A stretch of DNA of 64,000 nt from Stegostoma tigrinum (Eukaryota), in NCBI RefSeq assembly GCF_030684315.1, contig NC_081370.1:50424728-50488727 (forward strand), read 5' to 3'. The notes beneath the pieces were generated by a model, which saw nothing but the letters and a program-made list of their open reading frames with translations, was not told the DNA's origin and ran no database searches. The position numbers were made by a program, and so were the translations under genes. Shown here one piece after another: positions 5,221 through 62,700 of the stretch (positions within the stretch are counted from its first letter, which is position 1; the number at the start of each line of letters is the position of its first letter).

Positions 5221-6084
5221 TTTGGGAAGATGTAGAGTTTCAGTTAGCAATGCGTATTTCCTAATTGCCATTGAAAGAAACATTGTTTGGAATAATGTTA
5301 TTTTCTTAAGTATGCAACAGGCAAGTGTTCCCATTAAATCAGAGATATCCAGTCAAGGAAAATGGAGAATTTGGATAGTTTGACCAATCTTTTGACATGT
5401 ATGCTGTATCTGGAGTTGTTGGACTTGATTTTCAGTGCACTAACCCAGTGTCACAATTTGAGTCCTGTGACTAGGATTTTATAATGCAGGTAATAGAAGA
5501 TTGACTATTAAGTTAGTAAGTGATAAGGGACCAAAAGGGGAAAAAACAACAGATCTTCTACTAAGGAAAGTTAAGATTGCAGTAGAAACTGCTCAAACCT
5601 TCCTGCAGATAAAAGAGAAACCCTTGGCAAACTTTGACGAGAATCCAAAAGCCAGGTTGTGTGAATTAGCAAGTAAACTGGATGTGGAATTACCTGCCAA
5701 ATCAAAAAACATAGAAATAACTGAGGATTTAGTACAGCATTGGGCTTGATGGAAACAGTGGATGGGAATGGAACTAAAAGATTGGAATTTGAGGAAATGG
5801 CATGAGAAGAAGAATTTGAGAGGCTTGAACTGCACATGCAAAGGAGAGAGGAAAAGAATTTTAGCTTAAAGTGATGCACTTTTTAAAAAAATCTAATTGC
5901 TGATGCAGACTCTAACGGGAAAATCATAAACTGTATATCATTACCCAAAGTTCTGTGAGGAAATGTTAATGTTTGTACTGGCCCGACCAAACTTTGAGCA
6001 AAAGGACCTGGTGGCATTCTTCAGTGTAATAAAATGTGAGGCTGGACGAACACAGCAGGCCAAGCAGCATCTCAGGAGCACAGA

Positions 6085-6120
6085 AGCTGACGTTTCGGGC
6101 CTAGACCCTTCATCAGAGAG
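6085..6120 (-). ncRNA. Minimal type I hammerhead ribozyme motif (PLE pseudo-LTR)
   Basis: Reverse complement reads cu-CUGAUGA-a-GGGUC ua GGCCC-GAAAC-GUC^ag. Confidence 0.75.
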
Positions 6121-6528
6121 GGAGATGAGTTCGGTGGGGCAGGAGCAGGCTGAGACGATGGGTCGACCAGGGCAGGCAGGTTTGTGGATTTTGGGAAGGA
6201 GATAGAAACGGGCCGTGCGGGGTTGGGGAACAATGAGGTTGGAGGCTGTGGGTGGGAGGTCCCCTGAGGTGATGAGGTCGTGAATGGTGTTGGAGATGAT
6301 GGTTTGGTGCTCGGGTGTGGGGTCATGATCGAGGAGGCGGTAGGAGGTGGTGTCGGAGAGTTGGCGTCTGGCCTCGGCGATGTAGAGGTCAGTGCGCCAT
6401 ACTACCACTGCGCCACCCTTGTGTGCGGGTTTGATGGTGAGGTTGGGGTTGGAGCGGAGGGCTGCCCGTTCTGCGGGGGAGAGGTTGGAGTGGGTGAGAG
6501 GGGTGGAGAGGTTGAGGCGGTTGATGTC

Positions 6529-7800
6529 TCAACGGCAGTTGGAGATGAAGAGGTCGAGGGAGGGTAGGAGGCCTGGGGGTGGTGTCCAGGAGGAGGACTT
6601 GTGTTGGAAGCGGGTGAAGGGGTCAGTGGAAGGAGGGTTAGGTTCCCGGTTGAAGAAGTAGGCGTGGAGGCGAAGACGGCGGAAAAACTGCTCTATGTCC
6701 AACCGTGACTGGTATTCGTTGATGTGTGGTTGTAGGGGGACAAAGGTGAGCCCCTTGCTAAGGACTGACCGTTCGTCCTCAGTCAGTGGGAGGTCTGGGG
6801 GGATGGTGAAGATGCGGCAGGGCTCAGTGTGGCTGTCTCCTCTGGGGTTGCAGGCTGTGGAGGTTGTGGGCGGAGCGATGAGGTCGTTGGCCGTGGGCGG
6901 GGTTCCGTTGGCCGTGGGCGGGGTTCCGTCGGCGGAGACCGTGGGCGGGGTTCCGTCGGCGGAGACCGTGGGCGGGGTTCCGTCGGCGGAGACCGTGGGT
7001 GGGGTTCCGTCGGCGGAGACCGTGGGCGGGGTTCCGTCGGCGTCGACCGTGGGCGGGGTTCCGTCGGCGGTTGGAGGATCGGGGTGGGCGGCAGCAGCTG
7101 AGGTGAGGGTGGTGTGTGGGGTGTAGTACCTGGACGTGGAGGTGGTGACTGCAGCAGCGGTTCCGGAAGTGCTGTGGCCGGCGGAGGCGGATGTGACGTC
7201 ATCGGTGGGGCCTCCGGCCGTGTCCTCATGGTCAATGGCGGCGGGTGCATGGTGGGGGAGGGGCAGGGACAGACTCGGGATTTGGGAGGCGCAGGAATCC
7301 TCTTGTGGGGGGCAGGGGCCAGTGAGTTTGTTGTACTTACGATTTTTGGTGTCCAGTAAAGCTGAGTGGAACTGGGTGTTCAGTCTGTGGATCCTGCGGA
7401 GGATGAAAAACAGCAGGGGTCCTTTGCAGGTCTGGGAGAGGGAGGCTCTGAGCTGGGGCAGGCTGGATTGCAGTGCCTGGAGGTGCCGGCGCATGGCTGC
7501 GAGAGTCTGTTTCAGGAGTCGCAGGGAGAAACGCTTCTGAAGGGTCTGAATAAGCTGGGTGTAGAGGTGGTCACGGTTGGGGCCAAATTGGGAAGGCTGA
7601 AATGTGGACTGTAGTCCCTTTGGGATGATCTGGTTCCGTAGGCAGGTGCTGAGGAAGGTGATGTGGCTGTGGTACCTGGTTTGCTTCAGGACATGGTCGA
7701 GCAGTTTCAAGGCCGAAGAGATTACAAGAGAGTTGCAATGGGAGAGAGATTCCCTGAGGTTGGTCCGGAGGGAGGAGGGTAACTTCTTCAGGTTAGGCAT
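6529..7800 (-). CDS. PLE ORF N-terminal region (423 aa; basic helical domain plus Pro/Thr-rich linker); frame continues past a single TGA into the RT N-terminus
   Basis: ORF track; LSKGLTFVP and FFRRLRL motifs; same frame as ORF 5941-6408 (7800-6408=1392, divisible by 3). Confidence 0.7.
   Translation of the reverse strand: MPNLKKLPSSLRTNLRESLSHCNSLVISSALKLLDHVLKQTRYHSHITFLSTCLRNQIIPKGLQSTFQPSQFGPNRDHLYTQLIQTLQKRFSLRLLKQTLAAMRRHLQALQSSLPQLRASLSQTCKGPLLFFILRRIHRLNTQFHSALLDTKNRKYNKLTGPCPPQEDSCASQIPSLSLPLPHHAPAAIDHEDTAGGPTDDVTSASAGHSTSGTAAAVTTSTSRYYTPHTTLTSAAAAHPDPPTADGTPPTVDADGTPPTVSADGTPPTVSADGTPPTVSADGTPPTVSADGTPPTANGTPPTANDLIAPPTTSTACNPRGDSHTEPCRIFTIPPDLPLTEDERSVLSKGLTFVPLQPHINEYQSRLDIEQFFRRLRLHAYFFNREPNPPSTDPFTRFQHKSSSWTPPPGLLPSLDLFISNCR
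6886..7070. repeat. 27-bp GC-rich minisatellite (~7 units; encodes VSADGTPPT on the minus strand)
   Basis: Repeated ccgtgggcggggttccgtcggcggaga units. Confidence 0.95.
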
Positions 7801-7934
7801 CCCTGGAAGAGGCTTCGCAGTGAGGTTGAAATAGTATCAGAGATAATGGGAACTGCAGATGCTGGAGATTCCAAGATAATAAAATGTGAGGCTGGACGAA
7901 CACAGCAGGCCAAGCAGCATCTCAGGAGCACAGA

Positions 7935-7968
7935 AGCTGACGTTTCGGGCCTAGACCCTTCATCAGAG
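7935..7968 (-). ncRNA. Minimal type I hammerhead ribozyme motif (PLE pseudo-LTR)
   Basis: Identical core to the 6085-6120 copy. Confidence 0.75.
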
Positions 7969-8747
7969 GGCATTCTTCAGGTAATTTGGGAAAACAGTGA
8001 GATCAATGAATTGACCATGCAGAGTAGGTTGATTGCTAAAGCAAAAGAATTTTATGCTTCAGTTTCAGAGATTTGTATTAAGTGCGTATGTCTGAGAAGC
8101 ATACAGGCAGAAGTTTTGAAATTTAAGGAACCAGCCCGGCAAACTTGCATTGAATTTGAAAGATTAAGCAAAATAATTTTGACAGGTGGATTCGAGTTTT
8201 AGGAATTGAATCCATGTATGCTATACTTGGAAGAATTTAAGAACTCACTACCTCTTTGTAATAAGAACTCATGGAGGGCCAGAGTTACAAGACACAGTAC
8301 TGACTGATAATTATGAGCTGCTCTAAAAGACTGAACCTTTATTTTTCGGTCATCTGCATAAACCCAAGAAGAACAGAGTGGTGGGAGAATGAAAGGAAGG
8401 CAAGGTAAAAGAAAGGGTAGTTGGGAATGACCCAGAAATATTCCAGGCCTCTCTGAACACCAGATTAGTTCTGATGGGGGAAGGGATGGGGGAGCCTGGA
8501 GAATTGCAAATGCCACACTGTTGTTGAAGAAAGGGGCAAAAGGTAACAGAGGAAGTGGCAAACTCGTCAGATTGACAACAATAGTGGGAAAAATGGTGGT
8601 TGCCATAATATGAGCTAAGGTGAATATACACCTGAATAAAAATAAGTTAATACAATACAGTCCACATAGCTTTGTCAAGGGCAGGTCATGTCTGACTAAT
8701 TTAGTTGAGTTCTTTGAGGTATCACAGGCAATGGATGAGGGTAGTTT

Positions 8748-9083: not shown

Positions 9084-9316
9084 GTGCTGTCGATGTTGTG
9101 TGCCTAGACTTTCAGAAAGCATTTGATGTGGTGCCACGTGGCAGGTTGTTTATCAAATTAGAACGTTTTGGGATTGATGGGCCCATGACATCACGGATTA
9201 GAAATTGGCTAAAAGGAAACAGATCGGCATTGCTCAGATTAGCGAGCATTGAGAAGATTTGTAGCTCAGGTTGAGGTTCTGGATGGGAGATTGCTCGCTG
9301 AGCTGGAAGGTTAGTT

Positions 9317-9358
9317 TTTAGACGTTTCGTCACCATTCTAGGTAACATCATCAGTGAG
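9317..9358 (-). ncRNA. Hammerhead ribozyme motif (Poseidon-like pseudo-LTR)
   Basis: Reverse complement: cuca-CUGAUGA-u-GUUACC uagaau GGUGAC-GAAAC-GUC^uaaa. Confidence 0.75.
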
Positions 9359-9853
9359 CCTCCGACGAAGCGCTGGTGTTATGTCCCGCTTTCTATTTAT
9401 CTGGTTAGGTTTCCTTGGGTTGGTGATGTCATTTCCTGTTCTTTTTCTCAGAGGATGGTAGATTGGCTCCAAATCAATGTGTTTGTTGATGGAGTTCCGG
9501 TTGGAATGCCATGCTTCTAGGAATTCTCGTGCGTGTCTCTGTTTGGCTTGTCCTAGGATGGATGTGTTGTCCCAATCAAAGTGGTGTCCTTCCTCTTCTG
9601 TATGTAAGGATACGAGTGATAGTGGGTCATGTCGTTTTGTGGCTAGTTGATGTTCGTGTATCCTGGTGGCTAGCTTTCTGCCAGTTTGTCCAATGTAGTG
9701 TTTGTCACAGTTCTTGCAAGGTATTTTGTAGATGACGTTTGTTTTATTTGTTGTCTGTATAGGGTCTTTTAAGTTCATTAGCTGCTGTTTTAGTGTGTTG
9801 GTGGGTTTGTGGGCTATCCTGGTGCCAAGAGGTCCGAGTAGTCTGGCAGTCAT
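9338..9853 (-). pseudogene. PLE GIY-YIG endonuclease domain (open segment of a frameshifted ORF)
   Basis: VIY-CxxC-YIG-R-EH...E...N motifs. Confidence 0.85.
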
Positions 9854-11077
9854 TTCGGAAACGTCTTTGATGTAGGGGAGAGTGGTTATGGTTTCTGAGC
9901 CCGTTTTGTTTGTTTGGGTTTATTGCTGAGGAATCGGCGGACTGTGTTCATAGGGTACCCGTTCTTTTTGAATACGCTGTATAGGTGATTTTCCTCTGCT
10001 CTGCGTAGTTCCTCTGTGCTGCAGTGTGTGGTGGCTCGTTGGAATAATGTTCTAATGCAGCTTCGTTTGTGGGTGTTGGGATGGTTGCTCCTGTAGTTCA
10101 GTATTTGGTCCGTATGTGTTGTTTTCCTGTAGACGCTGGTTTGAAGTTCCCCATTGACTGTTCACTCTACTGTGACATCTAGGAATGGCAGTTTGCTGTT
10201 GTTTTCCTCCTCTTTTGTGAATGTTACGCCAGTAAAGGGTGTTATTGATGGTCTTGAAGGTTTCCTCTAATTTGTTCTGTTTAGTGATGACAGAGGTGTC
10301 AACCACATAACGGACCCAAAGTTTGAGTTGGATGCTTGGCAGCGCTGTTTGTTCGAGTCTCTGCATTACTGCCTCTGCTAAGAACCCTGATATCGGAGAT
10401 CCCATGGGTGTACTGTTGGTTTGTCTCTAGGTTTTGTTGTTGAAAGTGAAGTGGGTGGTGAGGCATAGGTCCACTAGCTTGGTGATGTTGTCCTTGCTGA
10501 TGAGGTTGGTGGTGTCCAGTGTATGTGTCTTCAGTTCTTGTAATAGTGTAGTCAGTTTGGCCAGGTTGATGTTGATGGATGTGAACAGGGCTGTTACGTC
10601 AAAGGAGACCATTATTTCATCATCTTCTATCTCGGTGTCTTTGGTGTTCAGGAATTCTTGGGTGGAGCGAATGGAGTGGTGGGAGTCTTCTACTTTTAGC
10701 CTTTGGTGTAATTCCTTGGCTAATCTGTAGGTTGGTGTTCCAGGTAGCGACACTATGGGTCTGAGGGGGACTCCTGGTTTGTGAATTTTTGGTAGTCCGT
10801 AGAAGCGTGGTGTGTTGGATCCATCTGGTTTCATTTTTTTGGAAGCCTCTCTTGTTTAATTCGCCAGATTTTTGAAGATTTTTGAGTAAGGCTGTGATTC
10901 GGTTCTCTAGTTGTGGGGTCGGGTCTATCGCCACCTGTTGATAAGTGTCAGTATGTGCAAGCAGTGTGTTCGCTTTCTCAATGTAGTCTGTTCGGTTTAA
11001 GATGACTGTCAAGCGTCCTTTGCCTGCAGGTAGGATAACGAATGTTTTTATCTTTTTTGAGTCATCCAAAAGAGGAC

Positions 11078-11581
11078 CTACTCGGACCTCTTGGCATCAA
11101 GGTAGCCCACAAACCCACCAACAAACTAAAACAGCAGCTAATGAACTTAAAAGACCCTATACAGACAACAAATAAAACAAACGTCATCTACAAAATACCT
11201 TGCAAGAACTGTGACAAACACTACATTGGACAAACTGGCAGAAAGCTAGCCACCAGGATACATGAACATCAACTAGCCACAAAACGACATGACCCACTAT
11301 CACTCGTATCCTTACATACAGAAGAGGAAGGACACCACTTTGATTGGGACAACACATCCATCCTAGGACAAGCCAAACAGAGACACGCACAAGAATTCCT
11401 AGAAGCATGGCATTCCAACCGGAACTCCATCAACAAACACGTTGATTTGAAGCCAATCTACCATCCTCTGAGAAAAAGAACAGGAAATGACATCACCAAC
11501 CCAAGGAAACCTAACCAGATAAATAGAAAGCGGGACATAACACCAGCGCTTCGTCGGAGGCTCACTGATGATGTTACGTAG
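11078..11581 (+). pseudogene. Inverted duplicate of the PLE GIY-YIG domain
   Basis: Near-identical peptide to 9338-9853 on the opposite strand. Confidence 0.85.
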
Positions 11582-11602
11582 AATGGTGACGAAACGTCTG
11601 AA
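11561..11602 (+). ncRNA. Hammerhead ribozyme motif (Poseidon-like pseudo-LTR), sense to TTC17
   Basis: cuca-CUGAUGA-u-GUUAC guagaaug GUGAC-GAAAC-GUC^ugaa; 3-bp stem I. Confidence 0.75.
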
Positions 11603-14600
11603 AACTAACCTTCCAGCTCAGCGAGCAAACTGACATCCATTGTTCAGATTGGAGAAGAGTTGAAAATGGTGTCCCCGAAGGATTGCTGTTGAAAACCCTT
11701 GGTTTTCTGATTTATATAAATGATTTCGAGGTGGTTGTTGAGAGCAAAATCTCTAAATTTACAGATGGTGCTAAGCTAGGAAGAATGAGAAATTGATAGG
11801 ATGATGCTGATCGACCTCAGAGAAACAAGTTCCTCAAATGGGCAGACACCTGTCAATTGCAATGCTGAGAAATGTGAGATATTGCATTTTGGAAGGAGAA
11901 ATGTGTCGAGACAATACTGGCTCAGTGGTACAACTTTTAGTGGGTTTAGGAGCAGAGGGACCTCTGGGTTCACATGCACGATTCTCTGAAGGCAGCCAGG
12001 CAAGTTGAAACAGCTGTTAGGAAGGCTTATAGTATCCTTGGGCTGATGAATAAAGGCAGAGAATATAAAGCAAGGAAGTTATGCTATGCCTCTACAAGTC
12101 ATTGATCATAGCCTTGTGTTCAGTTCTGGACACCTTATTTCAGGAAGAATGTTAAAGCCGTGGAGTGAGTTCAAAGGAGATTTACCAAAATGATGCCAGG
12201 AACGAAGGATTTTAGGTACAAGGATACATTAGAGAAATTGGGCTTATTCAGATTCGCAGTTAAGTTTGTTTTATCTCTTTCCTTGATGTAGTAGCCTGTG
12301 TCCAGTGTCCAGAAACAGTCCATTATCAGCTGAACTGTTTTGTTTGATAGGGTGCTCCCCACTCCCTTGTGAACATAGGTAATTCAACTGCTTTAATTAT
12401 TCAGCTTCCACTTGAAATTAAGAATCGTCAACCTATGGACAAAGTTCCCAGGAATCCTTTCGGTTCTATCAATATAATTTTCTGTGCAATAACTGATTTC
12501 CCCTTTTGGTATTGTATTGTTGTCTTGCTCTGGGATACTTCAGTGCCTTTCTTCCATCTCCTGGAACAGGTGGTTTTCCTAATGCTTCCTGCAAAGTTCT
12601 CGTCCACATTTCTTTTTATATTTCATTCCTCAAAACGTCTTTCACTTCTTAAAGGAATTGGGCGCATTGTTTGAAGTGCAACAACTGAATATAATACTAA
12701 ATGTCAAGCTATTTTGTACACTCCAGTAATTTTTTGGCCTAGGGATACCTGATACCTAGCTAGTCAATCCAGTTTCCTTGACCAAAATGCCATTTAAAAT
12801 TTTGTGCAGTGATTGACCGAGCTCCTCTGCAATGACAGACAAATATGGATGCTTTGAAATGATCAACTCAAGGCCTCAAAATCAATATAACCAGGGACAA
12901 CGCATTCTACAGGTTATTAGTCTAAGGAGCCTTTGGAGTTATTACCGCTACCAAAATAATTCATCAGTGAATGTAAGAAAAGTCATTGAATTTTTAAAAA
13001 ATACATTTTAACAATCTCCAATTTACCCTTGATGTCCTGATTTCACTCAATATTTCATTCAAGATAAAATATCTAAAAATTAGCAAGTTGCCAAATATTT
13101 GCAACTGAGGTAATTTTGAACAGCATCTTATTTGTGTACATACTGCACAGGCATTCACGTCAAGCCTGGAAACTAACTATCAAAACAAGTCCACAGATAC
13201 AGGAGAGCAGACGTAAGCCTGAACATTGCAAATGTTTCTGCAGTTGACCCCCCACAAAAGCTTGAACCTGTGTACTTGCCAAAATGAAAGAGATTTGCTC
13301 TTATGTTTGGAATGTGAGCTTCTTGAACTTTGTTCCAACAATACCCTTTACTCCAGATTCAGAATTTACCCTACTGTGGGATATTTCCATTGTGTGGTCC
13401 ACAAGATTTTTTTTGATCCAACCTGCGAAGCAGCTGCTAGGTTCTTTTCTCGGCTTTTAACAACATTGAATTTAAAGTTTTTAAAGTTCTTAGAACCAAT
13501 AGAAGCTGCTTCTAAATTGATACTTCCAAGCTTCAGGGGAAGTTAAGACATTTGAAATATTTGCGTACAGTCGTCTCATTGACTTCATCAAACATCTATC
13601 TTAATTAGTTGTATGCAGGATGCTTTGTAATTTTGGGTTCACGTTGTCTTTAATTGTGAGACCTGAGGCATGTAAAGGTTGTCCTCGGATACAAATCTAG
13701 TTACATACCCATATAAACCCTTCTAAGTGTTCAGGTTAGTTCCTTGAAGTTATCCAAGCTAATTTGATATCTTTTTAACAGTGTAGATCTTCTTGCTGTT
13801 ACATATCTTTTCATGATACAGTGAACAATGCAGCATCCGTTCCCATTACTAGGGGATGAAAATGATCATTGGCATGGTTACCATTCTTTATTGAACACTC
13901 AATTATGATTCCTGTTATGAAACGACACGCAGTGTGGAAAGAAGGTAAAAATAGTCCCAGGCATAGCTGGATAGGTGGAACAGCATGCATAGAGACTTAG
14001 AAAAATACTGCAAACTGAGGTGGAGCCAAGCTTCAATCATCCCTTATGCACCACCTCTAACATTGCCTGTACATCTGTTAACATATCAGTGGTCTTATTA
14101 TTGCGAATCAGGCACACATGGTTGGAATAATGGGTAGGACAGTCAGTTTTACTCATTTTTAATCAACCTGCTGGGACATGTAATGACACACCTATGGAGC
14201 AGATTAAACTTTAATTCGGGTCTTCTGGCCCAGAAGTGGTAGCACTTATTGTTGTAACTTACTTAAACAGTTATAAATTGTATTGAGAGAGTTAATCTAA
14301 AGGGTTTAATGATCTTAATTGGTTGCAAGCCCAGTTACAGCTGCAGGTGTATTCTCACAAGTTTTACGGAACATATTAAGTTTGTCATGAAAGAAATGAT
14401 ACTCAATAAAAGCTATCTTCAGCCATTTTATAACATCAGATAATGGTAGTGATTTGCCAACTGCTTGTCTCTTTTTCTCTTCTCATGACTGAAGTTCTCC
14501 TGTCTGCAGTCATCTTCCTTGTGTATCGAACCTTTAAGAATCACAACCTGTTAACTCCTGATAGCCAATACTCCCTGTGCATGATCAGAGACTTCTCTAG

Positions 14601-20700: not shown

Positions 20701-23700
20701 TAGATTTTAAAAAATGATACTACGACAGAACTAGTGATAATGGGAACTGCAGATGCTGGAGAATCCAAGATAACAAAGTGTGAAGCTGGATGAACACAGC
20801 AGGCCAAGCAGCATCTCAGGAGCACAAAACCTGACGTTTCGGGCCTAGACCCTTTAGCCAAAAGATTACAGTTTATACTTTCCAAGTTTGAGGATTTGAA
20901 AATTGAAATGACAAGTAATGCATTAAACTTTAAACTTTAATTCTAGGGTATCCAAGAACGGATCAATCTTACAGCACCAGTATTATCAAAAGAAGATCCT
21001 ATCTTTGTCAGCTTATCAAGGAGATTAGGTAGAAGTATTGAAGAAATAGGCCATAGAATTAATGCAGCCTTATTGAAGGTACGATTTACATTTTGTAATC
21101 TTCACTTAACATCTGACTTTTATTAACTGTTAGCATGTGAATACAGGTAATGTAAGCTGTGCATGCATTTCATGCAATGTATTCAAGTTCAGATAAAGCA
21201 AATCAGCCCATGCTGTTGGCTCCTTGAAATGTCAGTCTACTTACTTCCACCTTCTTGCATTTCCCCACAGCCTTCCAAATTTTCTCCCCCTTTTTGGGTG
21301 TATCTGTTTCCTTTGGAAGTTATTGTTGAATCAGTTTCAACATGCTATTAGCCAGTGCAATCTAGCTCATTATTGTGTCAAAAGAAATCTCTCGCAAGTT
21401 CGTTCATCAGCCCCCTTGAATCTCTGACCTCTGGTTGCTTGCCCTGCTACTACTGGAACCAGTTTATCGTTGTTTGTTTTATCAAAACTTTTACATTTGT
21501 GAGTATCTGTATAATATCTTCCCTCAACTTATTTGCTGTAGAAAGAGCAGCCCAAGCTCCTCTAATTATTTAAATGATACCATACTTAAAGGAGTTCTCC
21601 ACTCTGCAAGCTTTTGACGTTGTCTTTACATGTGTTGTGATGCTCTCGAATGCACTACCTAAAAGGTGTCGGAAGGCAGTTGAATACAGACTTTCAAAGG
21701 GCAGTAGATGACTTCATTTTATACTGTATGCTGCTTCTATTTATAAAACCAAAGCGACCATACACACTTTAACAACCTTATCTTGCCCTGTCACCTCCAA
21801 TTATTTGATTGGAATTTGTGTCTATTTCTGATCCCCTCTTAAATGTATTATTCAATTCATGCTGCCATTTCTCAATACTTGTACCAAAATGCTTTCTTTC
21901 ATAATTTTCCATTAACTTCCATCTGCCATACTTTTGCTTCAAGCCCATGACTATTCTGTTTGCTGTTGTGCATTTCAAACTCTCATGCAATTAGAAAGCT
22001 TGAACATTATATTGGAGCTATTTACCCAGCTTCATTCCATTAATATAAATCAGAAAGCAATGTAGTCTTGTACTCATCTCTGGCTTCCTACTGATCTGTA
22101 CGAGTAAGTTCACCACAGTTCTCTACTTTCTGTTCCTTAACTAATTTGATGTTTATGAAATTGCTATCGCTTAGACTGATTAGAAAATTTGTAGTCAGTG
22201 AGATTAATAATGTGATAATTTAGCAAAGACTTTTTGATAGTTACACATTAACCACGCTATCTTCATTCTCAAATCTCTATCAAATCAAACACAATTTGCC
22301 TTTAAAAAATTGTGCTGGTTGTCATTTATTACTTCATGAAAATGACAGTGAACAAGATGCGTTCTTAGTACCTTCTAAAATTAATACATCATTAAATTCT
22401 TACTGTTAAAAACGTAGAATATCTTCCTACTCTGTTGAGCCTTCAGCAGATGATATTGTAAGACATTATAATGCCACTGCTCTTTGTCAGCTCTGGTTCT
22501 GATATCTTGTACCAGTATCTTCCATTCAATTTATTTACGCATTGGACAAACAGTATAACACCTACTTATCTAATACATCCAAAATGTTAATTGGAATGAA
22601 ATACAGTTGTGAATTTGGGTAGCATACTCAATTGCAGTCACTTTTGATTGCATTACTTCAGACCTAATCTTAAGTTGCCATCCTTCTTTTCAGCTGCTCT
22701 AAGAATTGAGGAGATTTGAACTAGGTTTAGTCTCTGCAACTTCCGAAGCTGCTATTCTCAAAGGAGAGTTTTTGCTAATAGTAACGTTTTAAATAAAAGT
22801 GATGGTGTAACGATAAATAACTTGATAATTTTGATGACATTTCCAAGGAAAAGCTCAATAAATAATTTTCATTGTTTAAGTTGTTTCCATAATTGTAAGA
22901 AATTTCCAAACCCATTTTACAAACTATATTTTGTATGTTAAATATCAATTTATTCAGCACCATTTCTCTGCAACCACATTAATATTGTCCAAGCTTAATG
23001 GTAAACATAAAACGAATTTATCCTTTCAACACAATTTGTACGTATGTAAAATAGGATGTGACTGAAAATATTTTGAAATCTACCATATTAATACATCACC
23101 AAATTGTCACATCAATTCTAAATCATATTGAGTGCCATAAAATTATTGTTTCAGATACTTCTACTTCAGTTTGAGGGCTGTGCAACATTTAGAAATGTCA
23201 TTAATCTAAAAGAGCATGATCAATATTTCTTTAATATTTAAACTGTTCACAAACCTAAGTAAGAATTATTAAAGAAATGTATTTTCACATGACTACTGGG
23301 ACTAAATTGTTAAGTCCTTAATAGTTGAGCACAGTGATCACAGGGTCACATTGCAATACCTTGCAATGGATTAAAATAGCCGATTTCAAGTGTCCACAAT
23401 GATACAATCGTTCCTATTAATCTGATGTTTCTGTTATTGCAATGTTTTCATTATTTTTAGAATACATCATCATGGGTGTTGTATAACATGGCTTCATTTT
23501 ACTGGAGGATGAAGAATGAGCCGTATCAGGTGGTAGAATGTGTCATTCGGGCATTACATTTTTCTCCACGGTAAGCTTTCAAAAGCCAAGTGATAAACTT
23601 AACACTGATAGGGTTTCTCCTTGCATCCTGACCAATATTTCACAGTGTTTACTTTTTTTCATTTTCTTTGTGTGGAATGGCAGCTTAGTTGAACATGACT

Positions 23701-26700: not shown

Positions 26701-29700
26701 GTAAAGCAATCCTTGCCCAAATGCAGCATGACCTGGTCAATATCCAAGTTTGGACAACAAGTGGCAAGTAACATTCACCCCTCACAATTGCCTGGCAATG
26801 ACCATCTCCAACAAAAGAGAATCTAATCGTTGCCCTTTGAAATTAATTGACATTACCATCAGTGAAGCCTTGATTACCAACACCCAGAACATCACCATTG
26901 ACCAGAGAAAGAACTGCATTAGCCATATAAATACAGTTGCTACAAGAGCAGGTCAGAGGCTATGAATCCTGCAGCAGATAACTCACCTGAAAGCCCGTCC
27001 ACCATCTATAAGATATGAGTCAGCTGTGTGACGGAATACATCCCACTTCCTGGATGAGTGTAATTCCGACAACACTAAAGATGTTTAACACCATCCAGGA
27101 AAAAGCAGCTGCTTGAATGGCACCACATCTGCAAAATTCCATGCCTCTTCACCACTAACACTCATAGAAGCTGGGAGCATCTACAAAATGTACTTTAGAA
27201 TTTCACCAAGACTTCCTAGAGAGCAGCTTCCCTAACCCATGACTACATCTAGACGGACAAGGGTGGCTCATATCCCACAACTTGCGAGTTTGCCTCCAAG
27301 CTACTCACCATCCTGACTTGGGAATATATTTCTGTTTTCTCACTACTGGATTAAAATCTTGGAACTCGTTCCCCGTGAGGTGGGTGTACCTACACGAAAT
27401 GCACTGCAGCAGTTCAAGAAGGCCGCTAACCATTGCCTTCTTAACAAAAACTAGGGACGGGCAATAAATGTTGACCTATTTATTGAAGTCCCTATCCCAT
27501 GAATGAATTTAAAAAAGCACAAATAGAATGTACAGGAGCTACTGCCATTGATATTCAAAGAGAGAGTGTCACTTCTTCCTCAGATCCATAATGACAATTG
27601 ACATCAACTTTTTTTTTTCCTGTAAGTGTGCATGCTGTCCTGCATGCCATATTAAATGAGAAAAGCAGTGCCAGAAGCTGATGGAATCTGATGCCTGCTT
27701 TGTGGAGGAAAAGGTCAGGAATTAATCAAAGGTCAATGAATGTATGACAGACTTCACTTTCTATTTCTTAAGCATTGCACCACTGCTCATATGTAGCACC
27801 TGTTTACAGAACTTAGCATGACCTATCAGCTGATCAAACTGCCCCTGCTCCCAATGTTGTTTGCCAGCCAATTTCTAAATCCTAGATATACCCAACAAAA
27901 ATAAAGACAGAATCCCCCAGTCCCCTCATACCACCCCACCAACCTCCGCATTCAGCGTATCATTCTTCACCACCTCCTCACAACCAAAGAGATATTTCCC
28001 TCCACACTCCTATCTGCCTTTTGTAGGAATTGCTATCTCCGTGATCCCCTCATCTGCTCCACACTTTCCACTAATTACACCACACCTGGGACCTTTTCCT
28101 GCAACCGCAGGAAGTGCTTCATCTGCCCTGACATCTCTTCTCCCCTGCCCCACCTCACTGTCTCCTCCCCTACCCCCCCATCCCCTCCCCCTTCCCTCCC
28201 TTCCTCTCATGTTCTCTTTACCCCCCGCCTCATACTCTCCCCTCACCTCCATCCAAGGCCCAAAGCAAACTTTTCATACCAGACAGGTACATCTGTACAT
28301 CTTCCAACTTGTTGTTACTCCCGATGTGGTTTCTACATCGGTGAGACCAAGCGTAGACTCGAAGACCGTTACAGAGCATCTGCGCTCAACGCGACAAACT
28401 ACAACAACTTATAGTCCGCACCATTTTAACTCACCCTCCCATTCCCTGATGATATGTCCATCCTAGGCCTCCTCCAGTGTCACAATGCCTCCACATGCAA
28501 ACTGAAAGAGCAATACTTTTTATTCTGCCTCGGGAGCCTAGAGCCCGATGATCTTAACATAGAATTCACCAGTTTTATAATCTCCCCATGTCCAGTCCTC
28601 CCTTTCATCCCCACGTCCTTCTCCTGACATAACCTGTCCATCATCTCTCCCACCTATCCATCCCACCCATCCCATTGACCAATCCCCTTCAGTCCCTGCC
28701 TGCATTCACCTATCACTATCCCACCTACTTACCCCAGCCCTACCCTTCATCTCTATTTATTTCCCAGTTCTCTTTCCCCTCCCCATTTCTGAAGAAGCGT
28801 CCTAAACCAAAATGTCAACTTTCTTGCTCCTCTGCTGCCTGCCCTGCTGTGTTCCACCAGTTCCACATTGTGTTATTTCACAGTTAATTGTATGATCTTT
28901 TTTGTATTGAAGAACAACTTGCTGCAGAGATTCTGGAATTTTACGATACAGGAAAGGCATTCCCAGAAGCAGAAAAAAAGTTCAAAACTCCTGCATTATG
29001 CTGTATACATATACTTTTTTAAACAGGCAACATAAAGATGTAGCATTGATGAATTTGGCCAATGTCTTGCACCGAGCCCATTTCTCAGCAGATGCGGCCA
29101 TACTGGTTCACGCAGCATTGGATGTATCCACGGACTTTCTCACAAGTCATTACACTCTTGGAAACATTTATGCTGTGAGTATGCTGAATGTCTCTTTACG
29201 ATTTAATTTTGTTTACATTCTTGTTAGTGTGTTTAAAGGTCTTTAAAGTTTTATGCAGCAGTTCTCATTGACATAGTTTACGCACACAGAAGTATTCAAC
29301 TGTCATATTAGGTATTACTGCAAAGAGATGTGTTACTGAAGCTTTTCATCTTGCACTCATCACCGCAAACATAAGAACGCCAGATTTCGTGCCTTTGTGC
29401 TGATGAGTACATGATGAACCAAAATGATGACTTAACTGTCTCTCTTAAACAACACTTGAGTTCTAAGCAGTCTAACATCAGTCAAGTTAGAACTAAAAGG
29501 GGGACTATTACATTTGTATCATTTTATTTTGTATTTTAAATGGATTGTGTGAATATATTTTGAACTTCGTCTGTTTTACATTCACACAAGAAAAAAATCT
29601 TATTCACAAGCAGGACCCCATTCTTTCTATGCAAAATGAATTTGTCCCTGTGATGCATCTTTGCAGTTGAGGAAAGGGTTACAGAAATCTCCAATCCCAG

Positions 29701-41700: not shown

Positions 41701-44700
41701 ATTAAGAGGACATTGGATGAATGTTTGGATAGAAATGGTGTGCAAGGGTATGGGGGGTGGGGAGGATATTGACACGAGGGTAAAAAGCTGATGTAGGCAT
41801 GATGGGCCAAATGGCTGCCTCCTGCACTATTATACTGTGAAGAATGATGACTTCCATTTATCCACTGGAGACGTCTACGTTTATTTTTTGCATGTATGCT
41901 CCCAAGGCTACATTTTTGTACTTTGCATTGCAACTATGATTTGCTTTTCTTTGAAAAGGCTCTGTATTCTCACTTGAGTATTATTGAGGAACAAGTTGGA
42001 GAGGTCATCTCGCGAGCTATTGAAAAGGTAAGCTGATAACTTTAGTATGTCAAATTAAAGATGCCTCCTACTGGCAGGGCAGACCCAGCAGAAGTGGTGG
42101 CACAGTGGTATACATTCAGGAAAGAATTGCCCAATAGCCCTCAACACAGATGTTGGGCCCTATGAAGCCTCATAGAATCCGGTCAAATATGGACATGGAA
42201 CCACGTGTTGATTGCCACATACCCGCTGCCCAGACTCCTAGCTGATGAATCATTGCTCCTCCGTGTTGAACAACAGCTGGAGAAAGCACTGAATGTGGCA
42301 CGGGCACAGAATATACTCTGCATGGGGTATTTCAGTGTCCACTACCAGGAGTGGTTTCACAGCGCCACTACTAACTGAGCTGATCCTCAAGTGCTAAAGA
42401 ACATAGCTACCAGACTGGGTCTTTGGCAGGTGGTTAAGGAACCAAAAAGAAAGGAAGACATACTTGACTTCATCGTCCCCAGTCTGCCTCCTACAGATGT
42501 ATTTGCCCCTGACAGTATCGGTCACAGTGACCATGCCACAGTTCACATAGAAACAAAACTCTGCTTTCACGTTGAGGATATCCTCCATCGTGTGTGTGGC
42601 TCAGTGACTGTTCCAAATGAGATAGACTTTGAACAGATCTAGCAATTAATTGGTCATCAACAGCATCCAAATTATACTCCAACACATCTGCAAATTCATG
42701 GCCTGGCATATCCTCCATTCTTCCATATCCTTCAAGCTGGGAGGGGATCAAATCTGGCTCAGTGATGATTTTAGGGCATGCTAGGAGCAGTACCAGGGCA
42801 AAGCCTAAAAATTAGGTGTCAGCTTGATGAAGCTATTAAACAGGGCCATTTGCATGCCAAACTGCATAATCAACAAGTGGCAGATAGAGCTCAGTGATTC
42901 CACGTCCAGCAAATAAGATCCAGGCTGTGCAATCCTGCACGTCTATTCATAAATGGTGGTGGACAATGAAGCAATTCACTGGAGGAGAAGGCTCCACAAA
43001 CGTCTCATTCCTCAAATTTGGAAGAACCCAAACGTCAGTGTGAAAGATAAGGCTGACACATTCACAGCAATCTTCAGCCTAATGTTCCAAGTGATGATCC
43101 ATCCACCCTCCCCCAAAGGTCCCCAGCATCACACATGCCAGCCTACAGCCAATTCTGAGCAATTAAGCATTCATATTCTATTTTGGGTTGTGACTGTTAA
43201 GTTTCACTGTTTCATGCAACCATCCTGTATTTCAGAATCTGATTTTTAGTGTAAATTATGGATCTGTAATGCTTCAGAAATATTTCTTATAAAATATGGT
43301 GTCCTGTATGTAATGTCCGCTTTTAATATTTGTGCTCCCAATCCATAAACACCACAACAATTTCCATTTAATAGAGAGAAGCAGTATCTCCGAATAGCCA
43401 GTATTGTAGCTGACTTATGCCACTTCACTTCACTTAAATAGAGCCATTTAAGAATGAAATGCAATGTACTTTTTGCCACTTGCCCTGTATTATGTTGGAC
43501 TAATACAATGAACTCTTGGCACCCTATCATAAGATGATGCAACACAGAAAGGTGTCATTCACTTATCAGGCCAATGGAAGCTCTTTGGTTGAGTGTCTAA
43601 TGGGTCTTGTTCCAGTGCTGTTTCCCTGTAACCATTTTTTAAAAAATGTATATTATGCTCATTTGAATACTACTATTGAGCCTATTATCACTTTTTCAGG
43701 CAATACATTCTAGATCACAATAATTCACAATATAAAGAATATTATAAATGTTATAAATATAAGAGTGCTGAGTTTATCTGCAAGTCAATTGAAATAGTTA
43801 AGCAGGAAAGCTGACATTCCAAGTCTAGACCCTTCCTCAGAAATGGGGGAGGGTAAGGGGATTCTGAAATAAATAGGAAGAAAGGGGCAGGCGGATCGAG
43901 GATGGATAAAGGAGAAGATAGGTGAAGAGGATTCAGACCAGTCAAGGAGGCGGGATTGGAGCCAGTGAAGGTGGGGAGCTAGGAAGGGTATAGGTCAGTC
44001 CAGGGAGGACAGACAGGCCAAGGAGGCGGGTTGAGGTTAGTAGGTAGGAGATGGGGGTGGGTCTTGAGGTGGGAGGAGGGGATAGATGGGAGGGCAGATT
44101 AGGGAGGTGGGTATCAGCTAGGCTGATTTTGGGATGTGGTCAGGGGAGGGGAGATTTTGAAGCTTGTGAAATCCACATTGATACCCTTGGGCTGCAGGAT
44201 TCCCAAGCGGAATATGAGTTACTGTTCCTGCAACCTTCGGGTGGCATCGTTGTGGCACTGCAGGAGGCCCGAGGAGAGGGAGGGGGAGACGAAATGGTTT
44301 GCAACTGGGAGGTGCGTTGTTTGGTGGGAATCGAGCGTAGATGTTCCACAAAGCAGTCCCCAAGCATCCGCTTGATTTCCCTGATGTAGAGGAGGCCACA
44401 ACGAGAACAGCGGGTACAGTATACCACATTAGCAGATGTGCAGGTGAACATCTGTTTGATGTGGAAGATCTTCTTCGGGCCAGGGATGTGAGTTTGCGGG
44501 GAGGTGTAGGGGCAGGTGTAGCACTTCCTGCGGTTGCAGGGAAAGGTGCCAGGGCTGGTGGGGAGTGTGGAGCAGACAATGGAGTCACGGAAGGAGTGGT
44601 CCCTCTGGAACAGATAAGGGTGGGGAGGGAAAATGTCTTTGGTAGTGGGGTCGGATTGCAGTTGGCGAAAGTGTCGGAGGATGATGCATTGGATCCAGAG

Positions 44701-47700
44701 GTTGGTGGGTGGTACGTGAGAACAAGAGGGATTCTGTTTTCGTTGTTATTGCGGGGAGGGGGTATGAGTTGCGGGAAATGCAAGAGACGCAGTTGAGGGC
44801 GTTTTCAACCACTGTGGAGGGGAAGTTGCGGTCCTTGAAAAACGAGGACATCTGGGATATCTGAGAGTGGAATTCCTCATCTCGGGGGCAGAGGCGAAGG
44901 AATTGGGAATAGGTGATGGCCTTTTTGCAGGAAGGTGGGTGAGAGGAGATGTACTCAAGGTAGCTGTGGGAGTCGATAGGCTTGAAATGGATATCGGTTT
45001 CCAGGTGGTTGCCAGAGATGGAAATAGAGAGGTCCAGGAAGAAGAGAGAGGCTTTGGAGATGGACCAGTTGAACTTAAGGTTGGGGTGGAAGATGTCAGT
45101 GACGTGGATGAACTGTTCGAGCTCCTCGTGGGAACACGAGGCGGTGCTCATACAGTCCTTAATGTGACCGAGGAAGAGGGGGATAGGGCCAGTGTAGCTT
45201 TGGAAGAGGGATTGTTCCAAGTATCCTACAAAGAGGCAGGCATAGCTTGGGCCCATGTGGGTACCCATGGCCATACCCTTTGTCTGTAGGAAGTGAAACG
45301 AATTGAAAGAGAAGTTGTTGAGAGTGAGGACGAGTTCGGATTCGCGGATGAGGGTGCCAGTGGAGGGGGACTCATCGGCCCTGCAAGACAGGAAGAAGCG
45401 GAGGGCCTTTAGGCCATCTGCATGGGGAATGCAAGTATATAGGGACTTTCCATGGTAAAGATGAGATGTTGGGGACCAGGGATTCGGACTTTTTGGAGGG
45501 GTTGGTGTCACGGATGTAGGTAGGGAGTTCCTGGACCAAGGGCGAGGAAATGGTGTCTAGATGAGTGGAGATGAATTCAGTGGGGCAGGAGCAGGTGAAG
45601 ACAATGGGTCGACCAGGGCAGTCAGGTTTGTGGATTATGGGAAGGAGATAGAAGCGGGCGGTGCAGGGTTGAGGAACGATGTGATTGGAGACTGTGGGTG
45701 AGAGGTCACCTGAGGTGATGAGGTTGTGGATGGTTTGGGAGATGATGTTTTGGTGTTTGGGGGTGGAGTCATGATCTAGGAGGTGGTGCTGGAGAGTTGG
45801 CGCCTGGCTTGGGGGATGTAGAGGTCAGTGTGCAATACTACAAGAGCGGTCTAGACCGAAATGTCAGTTTTCCTGCTCCTCTGATGCTGCTTGGTCTGCT
45901 GTGTTCATCCAGCTCTACACCTGGTTGTCTCAGATTCTCCAGCATCAGCAGTTCCTGCTATCTCTGCAACAATTGAAATAGTTATTCCTTATTTGTAAAT
46001 TTGAACACCATTTAATCTCTTCTTAATCTGATGAGCCCAGTTTCTCTAAACATAACCAAATTCATAAACTAATAAGAAATAGGAGCAGGAGTAGACCATT
46101 CATTTAGCTTATCAAACTTCGGTAAGATCATAGCTAATCTGGTTGTCGTAACTCCGCTTTCCTGTCTGCCCCCCAATAATCCTTGACTCTCCCTCTGATC
46201 GGAGTACTGTCTAACCTATCCTTGAATATTTTCAGCAAATCAGCCTCCGTTTCTTGGAAGAGATTTCTGAAGACTGATGATGCTCTGATAGAAGTTCCTC
46301 ATTATTTTTGTCTGAAGTGGAAAGCGCTTATTTTGACCAGAATCTTCCATTTCTAATTCTACCATGTGGGGAAATATCCTAAATAAGAACTGAACAAACT
46401 GCAGACGCTGTTGAATCAGGAACAAAAACAAAGTTGCTGAAAAAGCTGAGCGGATCTAGCAGCATCTGTGAAGAAAAAAAACAGAGTTAACATTTCTGAG
46501 GAAGGGCCACCAGATCCAAAATGTTAACTGGGTTTTTTCCCCTCACAGACACAGCCAGACCTGCTGAGATTTTCCAGCAACTTTATTTTTGTTGTTGTGG
46601 GGAAATATCCTCTCAACGTCCATCCCATTAAGCAACCTCAAAAATCTTGAGTTTCACAAAGATCACCCTTCATCCTTCGAAATGCTGATACATTTGGGAA
46701 CAGTCAGTTCCCCTTGCAATAAAAACCAAACATGCCGTTTGTCTTTCTAATTACTTGCTGTGATTCTAACTTCTGATTCATATATAAGTGCACCCAGATC
46801 CCTCTTTATGTCCTGCCATTTAAATAAACTGCTATTTCCTTCCTGTCAGAGTAGACAACATCATATTTTCCTATGTGATATTCCATCCGCCCTTTTGCTA
46901 TCCTACGCATCTTTCTATCTTTGCCCATCCTGGCAAATCTCTTTCTCACCTCTCAAAGCCCTGACAAACTTTCCTAAAGTTTGGTGTCCTGAGTTAAACC
47001 CGACTACTCATAAATGATTTATGAGGGCTCAGTATAACAGTTACTTTTGTACTCCTCTTCCATTGATAAAACCAAGAATTTCTTAAGCTTTTAACAGCTT
47101 GCTGAAATTTGTCTGTCACCGTCAAAGATATTCCTACATTCTCAAGCTTCTACTCCTTTGAAAATTGGACCAATTAGTTTATATTGCATGTGTTTAGACT
47201 CCTGAACATGATGGGTGGATTTGAATTATTGCACTTTTGCTATTGTTCATTGGATAACGTGAAGGTTAGCCTCTCAATTTACATTCAAAATTATTTGTTT
47301 ATTATATAATTACGTGGCATATGTTTACCATTCTAATAACTGAGCAATTATTTTTAAACTATTATGCAATGCGTTCTGTTGATGTCAAACTTCAATCTGT
47401 ACCTAGTATTTTTGTGTGAGACAGAACAGATTCTTCTGACTCATTATGCTGATGGCTCACTCAAACTCATACAAGTCAGACTAAGTTACTCTGACGATAA
47501 AAACAATATAGAAATTTATAGAACAAAGAAAATTACAGCACAGGAACAGGCCCTTTGGCCCTCCAAGCCTGTGCTGATCCAGATCCACTATCTAAACCTG
47601 TCGCTATTTTCCAAGGATCTGTATCCCTCTGCTCCCTGCCCATTCATGTACTGTCTAGATACATGTTAAATGATGCTATCGTGGCCGCCTCTACCACCTC

Positions 47701-59700: not shown

Positions 59701-62700
59701 CACTTGACGAGTTAAGGATGACAGATTTCCTTTCTGAAAGAACATTCATGCACCAGTTGGATGATATTGAAAATGACAATGATAGCATGATTATCGTAAC
59801 TGAGTCTAGCTTTATTTCCAGATCTACTAACTGAATTCAAATTGCACCAGCTGGTGTGGTGGGATTTAAACAGACATCCCCAGAGCATTAGCCTAGTCCT
59901 CTGGATTACTACGACATCACTGTCTGCCCCAAAATGCATCTGGACTTTGTAATGGACATGATAAACTTAAAAACATTCTTGCTTACTTGTGTTGACCTAG
60001 TGACTGTGAAGTAATTAAAATTGAAATACAAATTGGTAAAATTCAGCTGAAAACAGTCATTTTCCAATCACATTTAGAACCAGAATTGAAGATTAAAAGA
60101 GAATTAAATGACAATTTACACACACAAAGAAATCGTTGTTTGAAAGGTGCAGAAAAGGTAGTTGATGCCAATGAACATACTTTGATTTTACATCCATGAG
60201 TTAACCTTGTCGTGGGTTAAATACAATGTATGTTCTGCAAAATTATTTCCTCTGCTTGATTTCCATACGCAGCAGAAGAAAATTATGCAAAATATCTGTT
60301 TGAAGGAATTTTGCATAGCAGGTGAGCAGAGGTGGATTATTTTTCTTGAAGATGTCAACAGCAATCCTGAAGGAAAGAACTTCTGAGGCCATCTTTCTGA
60401 GTTGAAGTGATGGTTGAGTTGCATTTATTAATAAGGGAAGTTTTGTTTCTTTCTTGGCAGCCAGCCTCAAAACTAGGAACAGGAATTGATCATTCACTCG
60501 CTAAAGTCTGTCTCATTGTTTACTAAGATTATGGCAGCTGCAAGGTACTTACAATTTCCTGAATGAACTTGAAAGATTTCCTCATTTTGGCCAGATTAGA
60601 ACGAGGAGACACTGTTTAATAATAAGTTTGCCTTTTAATATAGGTCTAAGGATTTTTTAATTTCTCTCAAGATTGTTATCCTTGGAATTCAAGGTAATAA
60701 AGGCTGGATGATTGTCTCAAATAAATTCAGAGTTAGGTGGAGTTTTGATTGACGAAGGCATCTAGGATTGTGGAGACCAGGCAGGAAAATAGAATTTAGA
60801 CCACAGCAAGGTTAGCCATTATGCTATTGAATAGTGGAGTAGGTTTGAAGGAATGTATGACCTGGGCCTTGCTCTTATGTTCCTGTGATCTGGCTAGCCT
60901 TTTTTTTGTTTTTGCAGTTTTTATTTGTTGGTAGCAAAATCACTGGGTTCACCTACACCAAATAGATGGTGGCATTTCAAGATGGCAGCTCGCCATCATT
61001 TTCCTAAAGTCAACTTGAGGTGGACAGTAAATACTGGCTCAGTTATTGATGTTGAAATCCATATTGTACGGTTGGTTTTGCGAGGTGTTGGCAGTTGGGG
61101 AGGTGTTGAGGTTGCTGTTGAGCTGATGCATAGTCAGAGATAGGCTCAGTCATGGTTGACAGAAGCTGCCTGTTGCAGACTGTAGGCTCCATAGAGAGGC
61201 TAAAGTTGGATGGCTGGGAACAGTTCAACCTCAAGTCTGAGCGAGCGAGACAGCAAAACAGCGCCAATCGGGTCATCTACAGTGTTAAAAAAAATCTGAT
61301 CATGTGCAGTGAGATTCCAAGTCCCAGTGACTTAATAACGTTAGAGTAATGCAACTATATACGGGCAGCGTTGAATCTGCAACTCCCGTGTTAAAGACTG
61401 AAAAAATTTGGAGATTCCCAACTTAGAAATCACCTTTAGAAATGTTGGACTGCGCTTAGGTGTCAAAATGGATAGACTCTTCATATTAGAGATAGTAGGA
61501 ACTGCAGATGCTGGAGAATCTGAGATAACAAGGTGTAGAGCTGGATGAACACAGCAGGCCAAGCAGCATCAGAGGAGCAGCAAGGCTGACGTTTCGGGCC
61601 TAGACACTTCTTTCTGAATCTCGGCCCGAAACATCAGTCTTCCTGCTCCTCTGATGCTGCTTGGCCGGCTGTGTTCATCCAGCTCTACATCTTGTTATCT
61701 CGGACTCTTCGTACTAGCTGGAATTAGATTTTCAGAAAGAAACACACTTTTGAAACAGATATCAGAAGGATTAAAAGAACTCCTGAGAAAATTACATTTC
61801 TTAGCAACCTTCATGGCTTAAATGGGTCATTCAGTTGATATAAACACAATGAATAGAGGATTGACCTGTGGCTGCAACAAGACATTAGCAAGATAAATGC
61901 TGAAAGCGTCAGTATGAAAGAATGATAACTAAAAGGAATGAAGCTAGAGACACTTATGGCATTTATAGGCAGTTGACAGGAGCTGGGAACTATAACAGAA
62001 GAATGAATCTCAGAAATGTCCATGCTATGGTAGGATTATAATATCATTATGCAATTAATTGTTCTAAACAGAGTGCAAGGGTTTGGAAATTACACATTTC
62101 ACACAGACAGTTTGGAAAGTGAAGATAGTGATACTGATCAGGCAGAATAGAAGAGTTATAAGAAACTTCAGCCCAATAATGAATATTTGTTTCTGTCACA
62201 GACTTGAACAGTCACACTGTGCTGGACAGTGGATGCAGATCTACAGTGTGTGGATTAGTTAAAATGTTCTTTAATCTTACTTTAGTCCTCTGTAGTGAAA
62301 GAAATTTGCAAGCTCTATCTGCTTTAGGTTTGGAGATGACAGCATACAGAAATTACTAAAGACGTGGTGATTTCCTGCAAAATAGTTGAGTGAAAACACT
62401 TGGCCAGCACAGATGTAACAGCAAATGAAATACCCTTGCTGTTAGTCAATGAAAAAATTTCAAATGAAATCCATGGAAAGCAAGGAGACATTTATTTGGA
62501 AAGTCAGTGGACTTAACAGTTTACATGATCAAATGCCAGTATTCCAGATCAGTGTTGAAGCATGTCGGAGTTTACAATATTATTGTTAAGAAAGTGCACT
62601 AAATGTTGTCTTTTGGCTTAGGAAGCCAAAAAAAAGTAGCTAATAGTACATTAGCATTAGTGTGGAATTTTATTGGGACCTGAATGATGAGGGTCATATC

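Follow-up and report, generated by a model that had tools for sequence, protein, structure and literature searches.

A one-off deletion copy of a young Penelope-like element, held between two hammerhead repeats and probably formed by a reverse transcriptase template jump

The closest described relatives of the element analyzed here are EN+ Penelope-like elements (PLEs) of the Neptune/Nematis type. In the parts of the articles drawn on here, these carry a single ORF with a reverse transcriptase (RT), a Cys-rich linker and, at the C-terminus, a GIY-YIG domain, hammerhead-bearing pseudo-LTRs, two 3′ ends about 38 nt apart (the "tail") and a target site duplication (TSD), and they form tandem and inverted insertions as well as internal deletions with an in-frame stop (PMC8557442, PMC3846280); all of these traits are shared by the parent family described below. 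Internally deleted copies with stops have been described among rotifer PLEs (PMC3846280, consulted in part). The minimal hammerheads that Cervera and De la Pena (2014, PMC4209133) describe in metazoan PLEs share with ours a conserved core, an unpaired base between positions 9 and 10.1, a G10.1-C11.1 pair, a palindromic 15.2-16.2 segment, the lack of a helix III loop and the need for a dimer, and the sections of that article used here state that evidence for in vivo cleavage by PLE hammerheads is absent. The start of the D. virilis Penelope lies shortly upstream of the hammerhead, across an intron (PMC2377424; PMC4209133). In vitro, the RT of an anole PLE has two internal start sites, works on RNA that is uncleaved and extends both strands of the DNA (PMC11167929). 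From what these partly consulted sources say, both the formation of pseudo-LTRs and the role of the ribozyme in PLEs are open questions (PMC4209133, PMC11167929).

The window analyzed was a stretch of 64,000 nt from Stegostoma tigrinum, in which a sequence-only reading had recognized a Penelope-like element whose pseudo-LTRs bear minimal hammerheads. Reference positions (r) refer to a natural copy, L069, with a monomer of 3,693 nt, in which r3 is the first base of the hammerhead core and the predicted cut lies at r30/31. The features of the locus are:

6013..6024, no strand: TSD, left copy, 12 bp
6025..6026, minus strand: two non-element bases between the TSD and the 3′ end of the element
6027..6118, minus strand: 3′ pseudo-LTR (reference r1-r92), with the minimal hammerhead core at 6116-6089 and the predicted cut at 6089/6088
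6119..6127, minus strand: deletion junction between r1857 and r-1, the latter 4 nt upstream of the core
6121..6528, minus strand: 136 in-frame codons remaining past the stop, with 96% identity to the full-length protein
6529..6531, minus strand: premature stop, CGA to TGA at a CpG
6529..7800, minus strand: the "423-aa ORF", the N-terminal part of the family's single ORF, with its ATG at 7800 and no Pfam match
6885..7070, minus strand: in-frame 27-nt minisatellite (ADGTPPTVS)
7801..7876, minus strand: 5′ untranslated region past the repeat, in which the other common 3′ end of the family falls, near r130
7877..7968, minus strand: 5′ pseudo-LTR, starting 2 nt before the hammerhead core (r1), with the predicted cut at 7939/7938
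7969..7980, no strand: TSD, right copy, 12 bp

The initial description of the locus was confirmed in part. Each repeat carries the hammerhead core on the minus strand (CTGATGA-A-GGG-TCTAGG-CCC-GAAAC-GTC), and the 92-nt direct repeats are 100% identical at an offset of 1850 nt, with no flanking base matching further. The 12-bp TSD (GGCATTCTTCAG) is clean, two extra bases separating its left copy from the 3′ end of the element, and CpGs are indeed retained, with an observed/expected ratio of 0.73 in the element and 0.28 over the remainder of the window. Position 6027 corresponds to the shorter of two common 3′ ends in the family and would mark the point at which RT started on this copy. Among 17 full-length copies, two were out of register and left out of the comparison of repeats, and 10 of the 15 comparable in register had identical repeats; on this evidence, an identical pair is normal for the young Penelope family to which the window element belongs.

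The parent is a young, autonomous Neptune-type Penelope family, and the window copy is 97.8-98.4% identical to the 17 full-length copies. A genome search with the 5′ region returned 2,925 candidates, of which 40 were scored, all at ≥98%. The 28-nt hammerhead core has 92,176 exact matches in the genome and the 33-nt tail 95,398, and uninterrupted frames of 1,085-1,178 aa were present at 16 of the 20 loci fetched. The family protein is encoded by a single ORF (about 1,075-1,100 aa, with intact frames of about 1,085-1,110 aa) with RT and GIY-YIG; in a Pfam scan of one full-length copy, RVT_1 (E=2e-5) as well as GIY-YIG (E=0.003) matched with scores below the curated cut-offs. With domain scores at that level, the family has the EN+ Penelope organization, i.e. 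one ORF with RT, Cys-rich linker and C-terminal GIY-YIG, together with hammerhead-bearing pseudo-LTRs, an optional 30-40-bp tail and a TSD. The parent frames contain the linker CNRRKCYTC (CX2-5CxxC-like), and it is this Cys-rich motif, under the definition in the part of PMC8557442 used here, that points to the Neptune/Nematis type as the clade. The window element, a deletion derivative of EN+ PLEs, is a single broken member of a family of about 10^5 copies.

The coding part of the copy fared less well than first described. The 423-aa frame, described as open and as continuing into RT motifs, begins at the ATG at 7800 and ends at TGA 6529-6531, where all 17 aligned full-length copies read CGA; the RT-like stretch CPTELIS/LSDEG lies within the 136 further codons behind that stop. 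The absence of the RT core and GIY-YIG was borne out, as neither was matched by Pfam in the window frames and both were matched in a full-length copy, below curated cut-offs. The DKG motif reads HKG in the window copy, at 6423. Nine changes are private to this copy, i.e. absent from the 17 full-length copies: one in the UTR, one synonymous, six missense and one stop. Just one of the nine is a CpG transition, and for that reason some may have been inherited from an unsampled sub-lineage. The 27-nt minisatellite varies in copy number between full-length copies with the frame kept. Selection on the N-terminal ORF had been raised as a point to check over copies; the stop, the altered DKG motif and the ratio of six missense changes to one synonymous change suggest, in these small numbers, a decaying frame with no sign of selection for the N-terminal protein.

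Relative to L069, the window copy consists of r1-r1857 joined to r-1..r92 and is missing 1,834 nt. The two sides of the junction share 2 nt of perfect homology, or 7 nt with one mismatch, and there is no untemplated base and no extra G. Had the copy belonged to a distinct non-autonomous family, as was proposed, independent insertions should share this junction; none was found genome-wide. The 31-nt junction sequence has one exact match in the 3.2 Gb genome, the window itself, and one match with two mismatches (L002), in which the crossover lies on the opposite side of the mismatch in the CATC(T/C)CC homology and the repeat variants differ. A gapped junction pattern recovered six loci, including the window copy, all with different junction letters, versus none at a control site (P=0.03, for one control site). 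Three of these loci (L307, L308, L309) are solo repeats nested in older copies, independent insertions at a near-identical RT-region site (r1847-r1866) that hint at a preferred target or joining site, with the RT-side pieces of L307 and L309 short and their alignment uninformative. Another pattern gave 24,529 matches, mostly ordinary repeats, and normal pre-hammerhead sequence thus resembles the RT site; when local matches to the pre-core sequence are ranked, the r1857 site falls outside the best 12, which weighs against the template jump proposed below.

The layout itself is not unique. Repeat-deletion-repeat arrangements were present in 3 of the 29 other top matches, with junctions at r906, r1497 and r1856 and a G just before the repeat each time; L071, L080 and L081 have the same layout as the window copy and a junction G not supplied there by the reference. 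Neither L002 nor L071 could be accepted as a sister of the window copy, given their other junction letters, other sub-lineage variants and lack of any shared private change where covered (L071, the closest analogue, has none of the nine). The layout recurs, arising anew each time; the junction has not been amplified, and the window copy has left no daughters in the present assembly. The unique junction and the decaying frame are two of the outcomes that the sequence-only reading had itself named as speaking against a distinct family.

Copies of the family end preferentially just ahead of the hammerhead, and both window repeats begin at this breakpoint peak, 2-5 nt before the core. Of 100 tail-anchored copies on one contig (C1), 23 end between r5 and r-7 versus 5 over the next 50 nt; a further 14 end at r34-r60, 7 at r28-r33 (5 of them at r31) and 5 at r6-r27, the longer ends in this count being partly artefacts of divergence from the reference. 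Anchoring at the core instead (n=115, contig C1) placed 36 ends within 7 nt of it versus 13 over the next 100 nt. Over the whole genome, a break at r-1 preceded by two non-reference bases is present in 5,919 copies; among the 100 matches listed, the base adjoining r-1 is G in 85, T in 14 and A in 1 (C being excluded by the pattern). Untemplated letters were present in 29 of 73 r-1 junctions inspected on contig C1, and the last of them is G in 25 of the 29, versus 3 of 12 at r31 (P=0.0003; the r31 sample comprised 53 junctions on contig C1 and was enriched for non-palindromic cases). At the 3′ side, family ends cluster at about r92-r101 and r125-r138.

An extra G at a 5′ junction is a mark of an RT that has copied an RNA cap. 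From the breakpoint peak and the G next to r-1, we infer that the family RNA would be capped and would begin within the pyrimidine run, 2-5 nt upstream of the core. Alternatively, the peak could stem from an arrest of RT past the core hairpin combined with a preference for adding C. Two other sources of the G were rejected: splicing, as the parent has no AG acceptor there, and pure snap-back (AG/CT), which provides only partial cover, TG and GG together making up 30 of the 85 G cases listed. Contigs from DNA runs are joined at 6117, 6120 and 6088, with loose ends at 6117 and an additional C after 6120; of the 11 rows listed for one run (X8), 4 have the additional C after 6120 and one has it after 7968. 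The runs with those joints may be what the assembly was built from and do not count as independent support. In a literature search bounded by subscription-journal coverage, and covering parts of articles with supplements excluded, we found no report of a cap-like G, a pre-core peak or cleavage-site junctions in PLE copies.

These observations lead us to regard the window copy as a single defective insertion of a young and abundant autonomous Neptune-type PLE, likely made in one integration event through a template jump by RT. Target-primed reverse transcription would have started internally, about 92 nt into the RNA, and the first cDNA would have run off the RNA start after about 94 nt. RT would then have jumped, on a few bases of homology, to about r1857 in the RT region and copied on to the RNA start once more. 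Two such run-offs would leave two identical repeats, both beginning at the hammerhead, as they do in the window because the family-wide breakpoint peak lies just upstream of the core. The stop codon would have been picked up after insertion. The internal starts required have a precedent, as the two clusters of family 3′ ends match the two internal RT start sites of the anole PLE (PMC11167929, in the part used here). Furthermore, both window repeats carry a C at r36 that was seen in none of 135 sampled copies and in 1 of the 17 full-length copies, and this rare variant common to both argues that the two repeats come from one source. The three repeats of L080 likewise have three rare variants in common, and in 28 head-to-head pairs 33 variants are shared, against 10.8 in shuffles, none of 2,000 shuffles reaching 33; sub-lineage alone may partly explain the sharing in such pairs.

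The main alternative is that a full-length insertion later lost 1,834 nt through a microhomology-mediated DNA deletion, which would still leave a one-off dead copy. This also fits the window locus, because the junction has microhomology and no extra G or other untemplated base, and deletions of this type, with in-frame stops, are described for rotifer Penelope in the part of PMC3846280 consulted. However, the deletion ends 1-3 nt from the family's strongest cDNA-end peak, better homologies are available elsewhere in the element, and the same layout in L071, L080 and L081 comes with a G that the reference does not provide at that place. We therefore consider a later deletion unlikely. Less probable again is a retrocopy of an already deleted or nested "master", mobilized once in trans and since lost or absent from the assembly. 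The solo repeats nested at the same RT site (L307-L309) show how it might arise, as a transcript of such a locus would give the window layout, and pseudo-LTRs suffice for mobilization in trans in rotifers (PMC3846280, in part); yet no other locus has the window junction, and the shared r36 C indicates one source rather than an unrelated nested repeat.

Whether the ribozyme took part can be approached through its core and the breaks at its predicted cut. The repeats have the features of a minimal type I hammerhead as listed in the part of PMC4209133 used here, with the CUGANGA / GAAA / GUC core, palindromic helix III and G10.1-C11.1, whereas helix I, for which 4-5 bp are expected, has 2 bp available (CU/AG); helix II has three Watson-Crick pairs. 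The predicted fold of the monomer is a hairpin that buries the core, and an Rfam scan at E≤10 gave no match. In genome-wide counts made at r26, r27 and r31, 2,687 copies break at r31 versus 212 at r27 and 249 at r26. Fold-back letters at the AGCT palindrome account for 63 of the 100 r31 breaks listed, and fold-back letters at the ACGT palindrome for 44 of the 100 listed at r26, nine of these from one array; some r31 breaks are microhomology joins or small local indels. A palindrome by itself was rejected as an explanation of the r31 peak, given that 249 breaks, against 2,687, fall at the ACGT palindrome, which lies 5 nt away. A pause of RT at the foot of the core hairpin is a possible cause and would predict almost the same place. 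The r31 excess is a hint of in vivo cleavage in the family.

At four loci (L242, L243, L368 and L370), the 5′ region (r203-r278) is joined directly to r31, the base of the predicted cut, in short joins that may be products of jumps from cleaved RNA. At L080:3135-4265, the three repeats have common changes in and beside the catalytic core, and this element was probably copied with a dead ribozyme.

The window copy has neither an end nor a junction at r31, and the idea that its hammerhead-bounded ends record the copying of a cleaved circle gives way to the family breakpoint peak. A transcript of the window copy, with the RT core and endonuclease deleted, would in principle retain the cis sites that copying in trans requires. 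A retrozyme-like non-autonomous family, in which double hammerhead cleavage would release an 1,850-nt circle and the N-terminal protein would be kept, has in its favor two intact cores in direct orientation, a family-wide excess of ends at the predicted cut that suggests occasional ribozyme cleavage, and circles proposed for PLEs (PMC4209133, in part), but is very improbable given a single copy with a nonsense codon, a mutated DKG motif and seven protein-changing versus one silent private change, no end at the cut site, a core buried in the predicted monomer hairpin with a 2-bp helix I, and, in the portions of the sources drawn on, known retrozymes that are non-coding, tandem and 51-972 nt long in a vertebrate survey (PMC7229834; bioRxiv 10.64898/2026.07.22.740005) and Xenopus dimers of which eight of nine tested failed to cleave (bioRxiv 10.64898/2026.07.22.740005).

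Other PLE sequences were noted in the window and elsewhere in the genome. An older, decayed relative at 43801-45974 (70-80% identical) still covers the RT core and the endonuclease region that the window copy lacks, and 45848-45974 within it is an inverted repeat stub. At 9280-11639 lies another, unrelated element of Penelope type, whose RT and GIY-YIG-like frames are broken and whose inverted arms, 562 nt long, are 98% identical. Stubs of the same repeats or related ones are also present at 826-909, 20733-20854, 27976-28875 and 61484-61708, the last being a head-to-head stub pair. Three frames flanking the element gave no significant Pfam match. Outside the window, L382:1474-3392 (contig C2, near 58.043 Mb) consists of 9.2 tandem units, each 208 nt long and 99% alike, derived from r26-r233. 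Its unit is without most of the hammerhead core, and tandem amplification there thus needs no ribozyme.

The locus is ordinary, and its value would lie in being a clean example of a one-step origin of hammerhead-bounded deletion units. A broader scheme for PLEs of the parent type is offered tentatively, as somewhat short of an even chance: the capped RNA would begin with the hammerhead, RT would start about 92 or 130 nt in, and the resulting strong-stop-like cDNA would have to jump. A correct jump would give an element with pseudo-LTRs and a failed one a stub or mirror pair, of which there are tens of thousands; a mis-jump, as in the window copy, would give a hammerhead-to-hammerhead unit in a single step, the raw material of retrozymes. 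Ends at the exact cut base would reflect in vivo cleavage. The family junctions give base-level predictions for this scheme, with a capped RNA start between r-2 and r1 and cleavage at r30/31.

Compared with EN+ PLEs in the portions of the literature cited above, the locus differs in that both repeats begin at the hammerhead, and the size of the family lets its ends be counted. Its ribozyme departs from the PLE minimal hammerheads of PMC4209133, as partly consulted, in a helix I of only 2 bp, as in D. virilis, and in a helix II of three Watson-Crick pairs. The anole Poseidon element PAc (Frangieh et al. 2024, PMC11167929) shares two internal RT starts downstream of the hammerhead and insertion without need for cleavage, which here is paralleled by L080, inserted with core changes. 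In the part of that article used here, PAc yielded no RNA reads ending at the cut site, whereas genomic junctions peak there in our family, and run-off-and-jump products go unreported. Lastly, non-LTR retrozymes, as described in parts of PMC7229834 and bioRxiv 10.64898/2026.07.22.740005, share with the window copy a PLE-derived, hammerhead-to-hammerhead unit without enzymes. The window unit measures 1,850 nt rather than 51-972 nt, is present as one unit plus 92 nt at a single locus, contains a decayed coding piece and has a minimal, not canonical, ribozyme, compared here from DNA alone. Retrozymes form multi-copy non-autonomous families of a fixed unit with abundant circular RNA, typically a short (under about 1 kb), non-coding tandem one; here the junction is unique and the unit derives from coding sequence. 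The window copy shows what a newborn retrozyme unit would look like, and the run-off-and-jump route, if true, would supply the missing step from PLEs to animal retrozymes.
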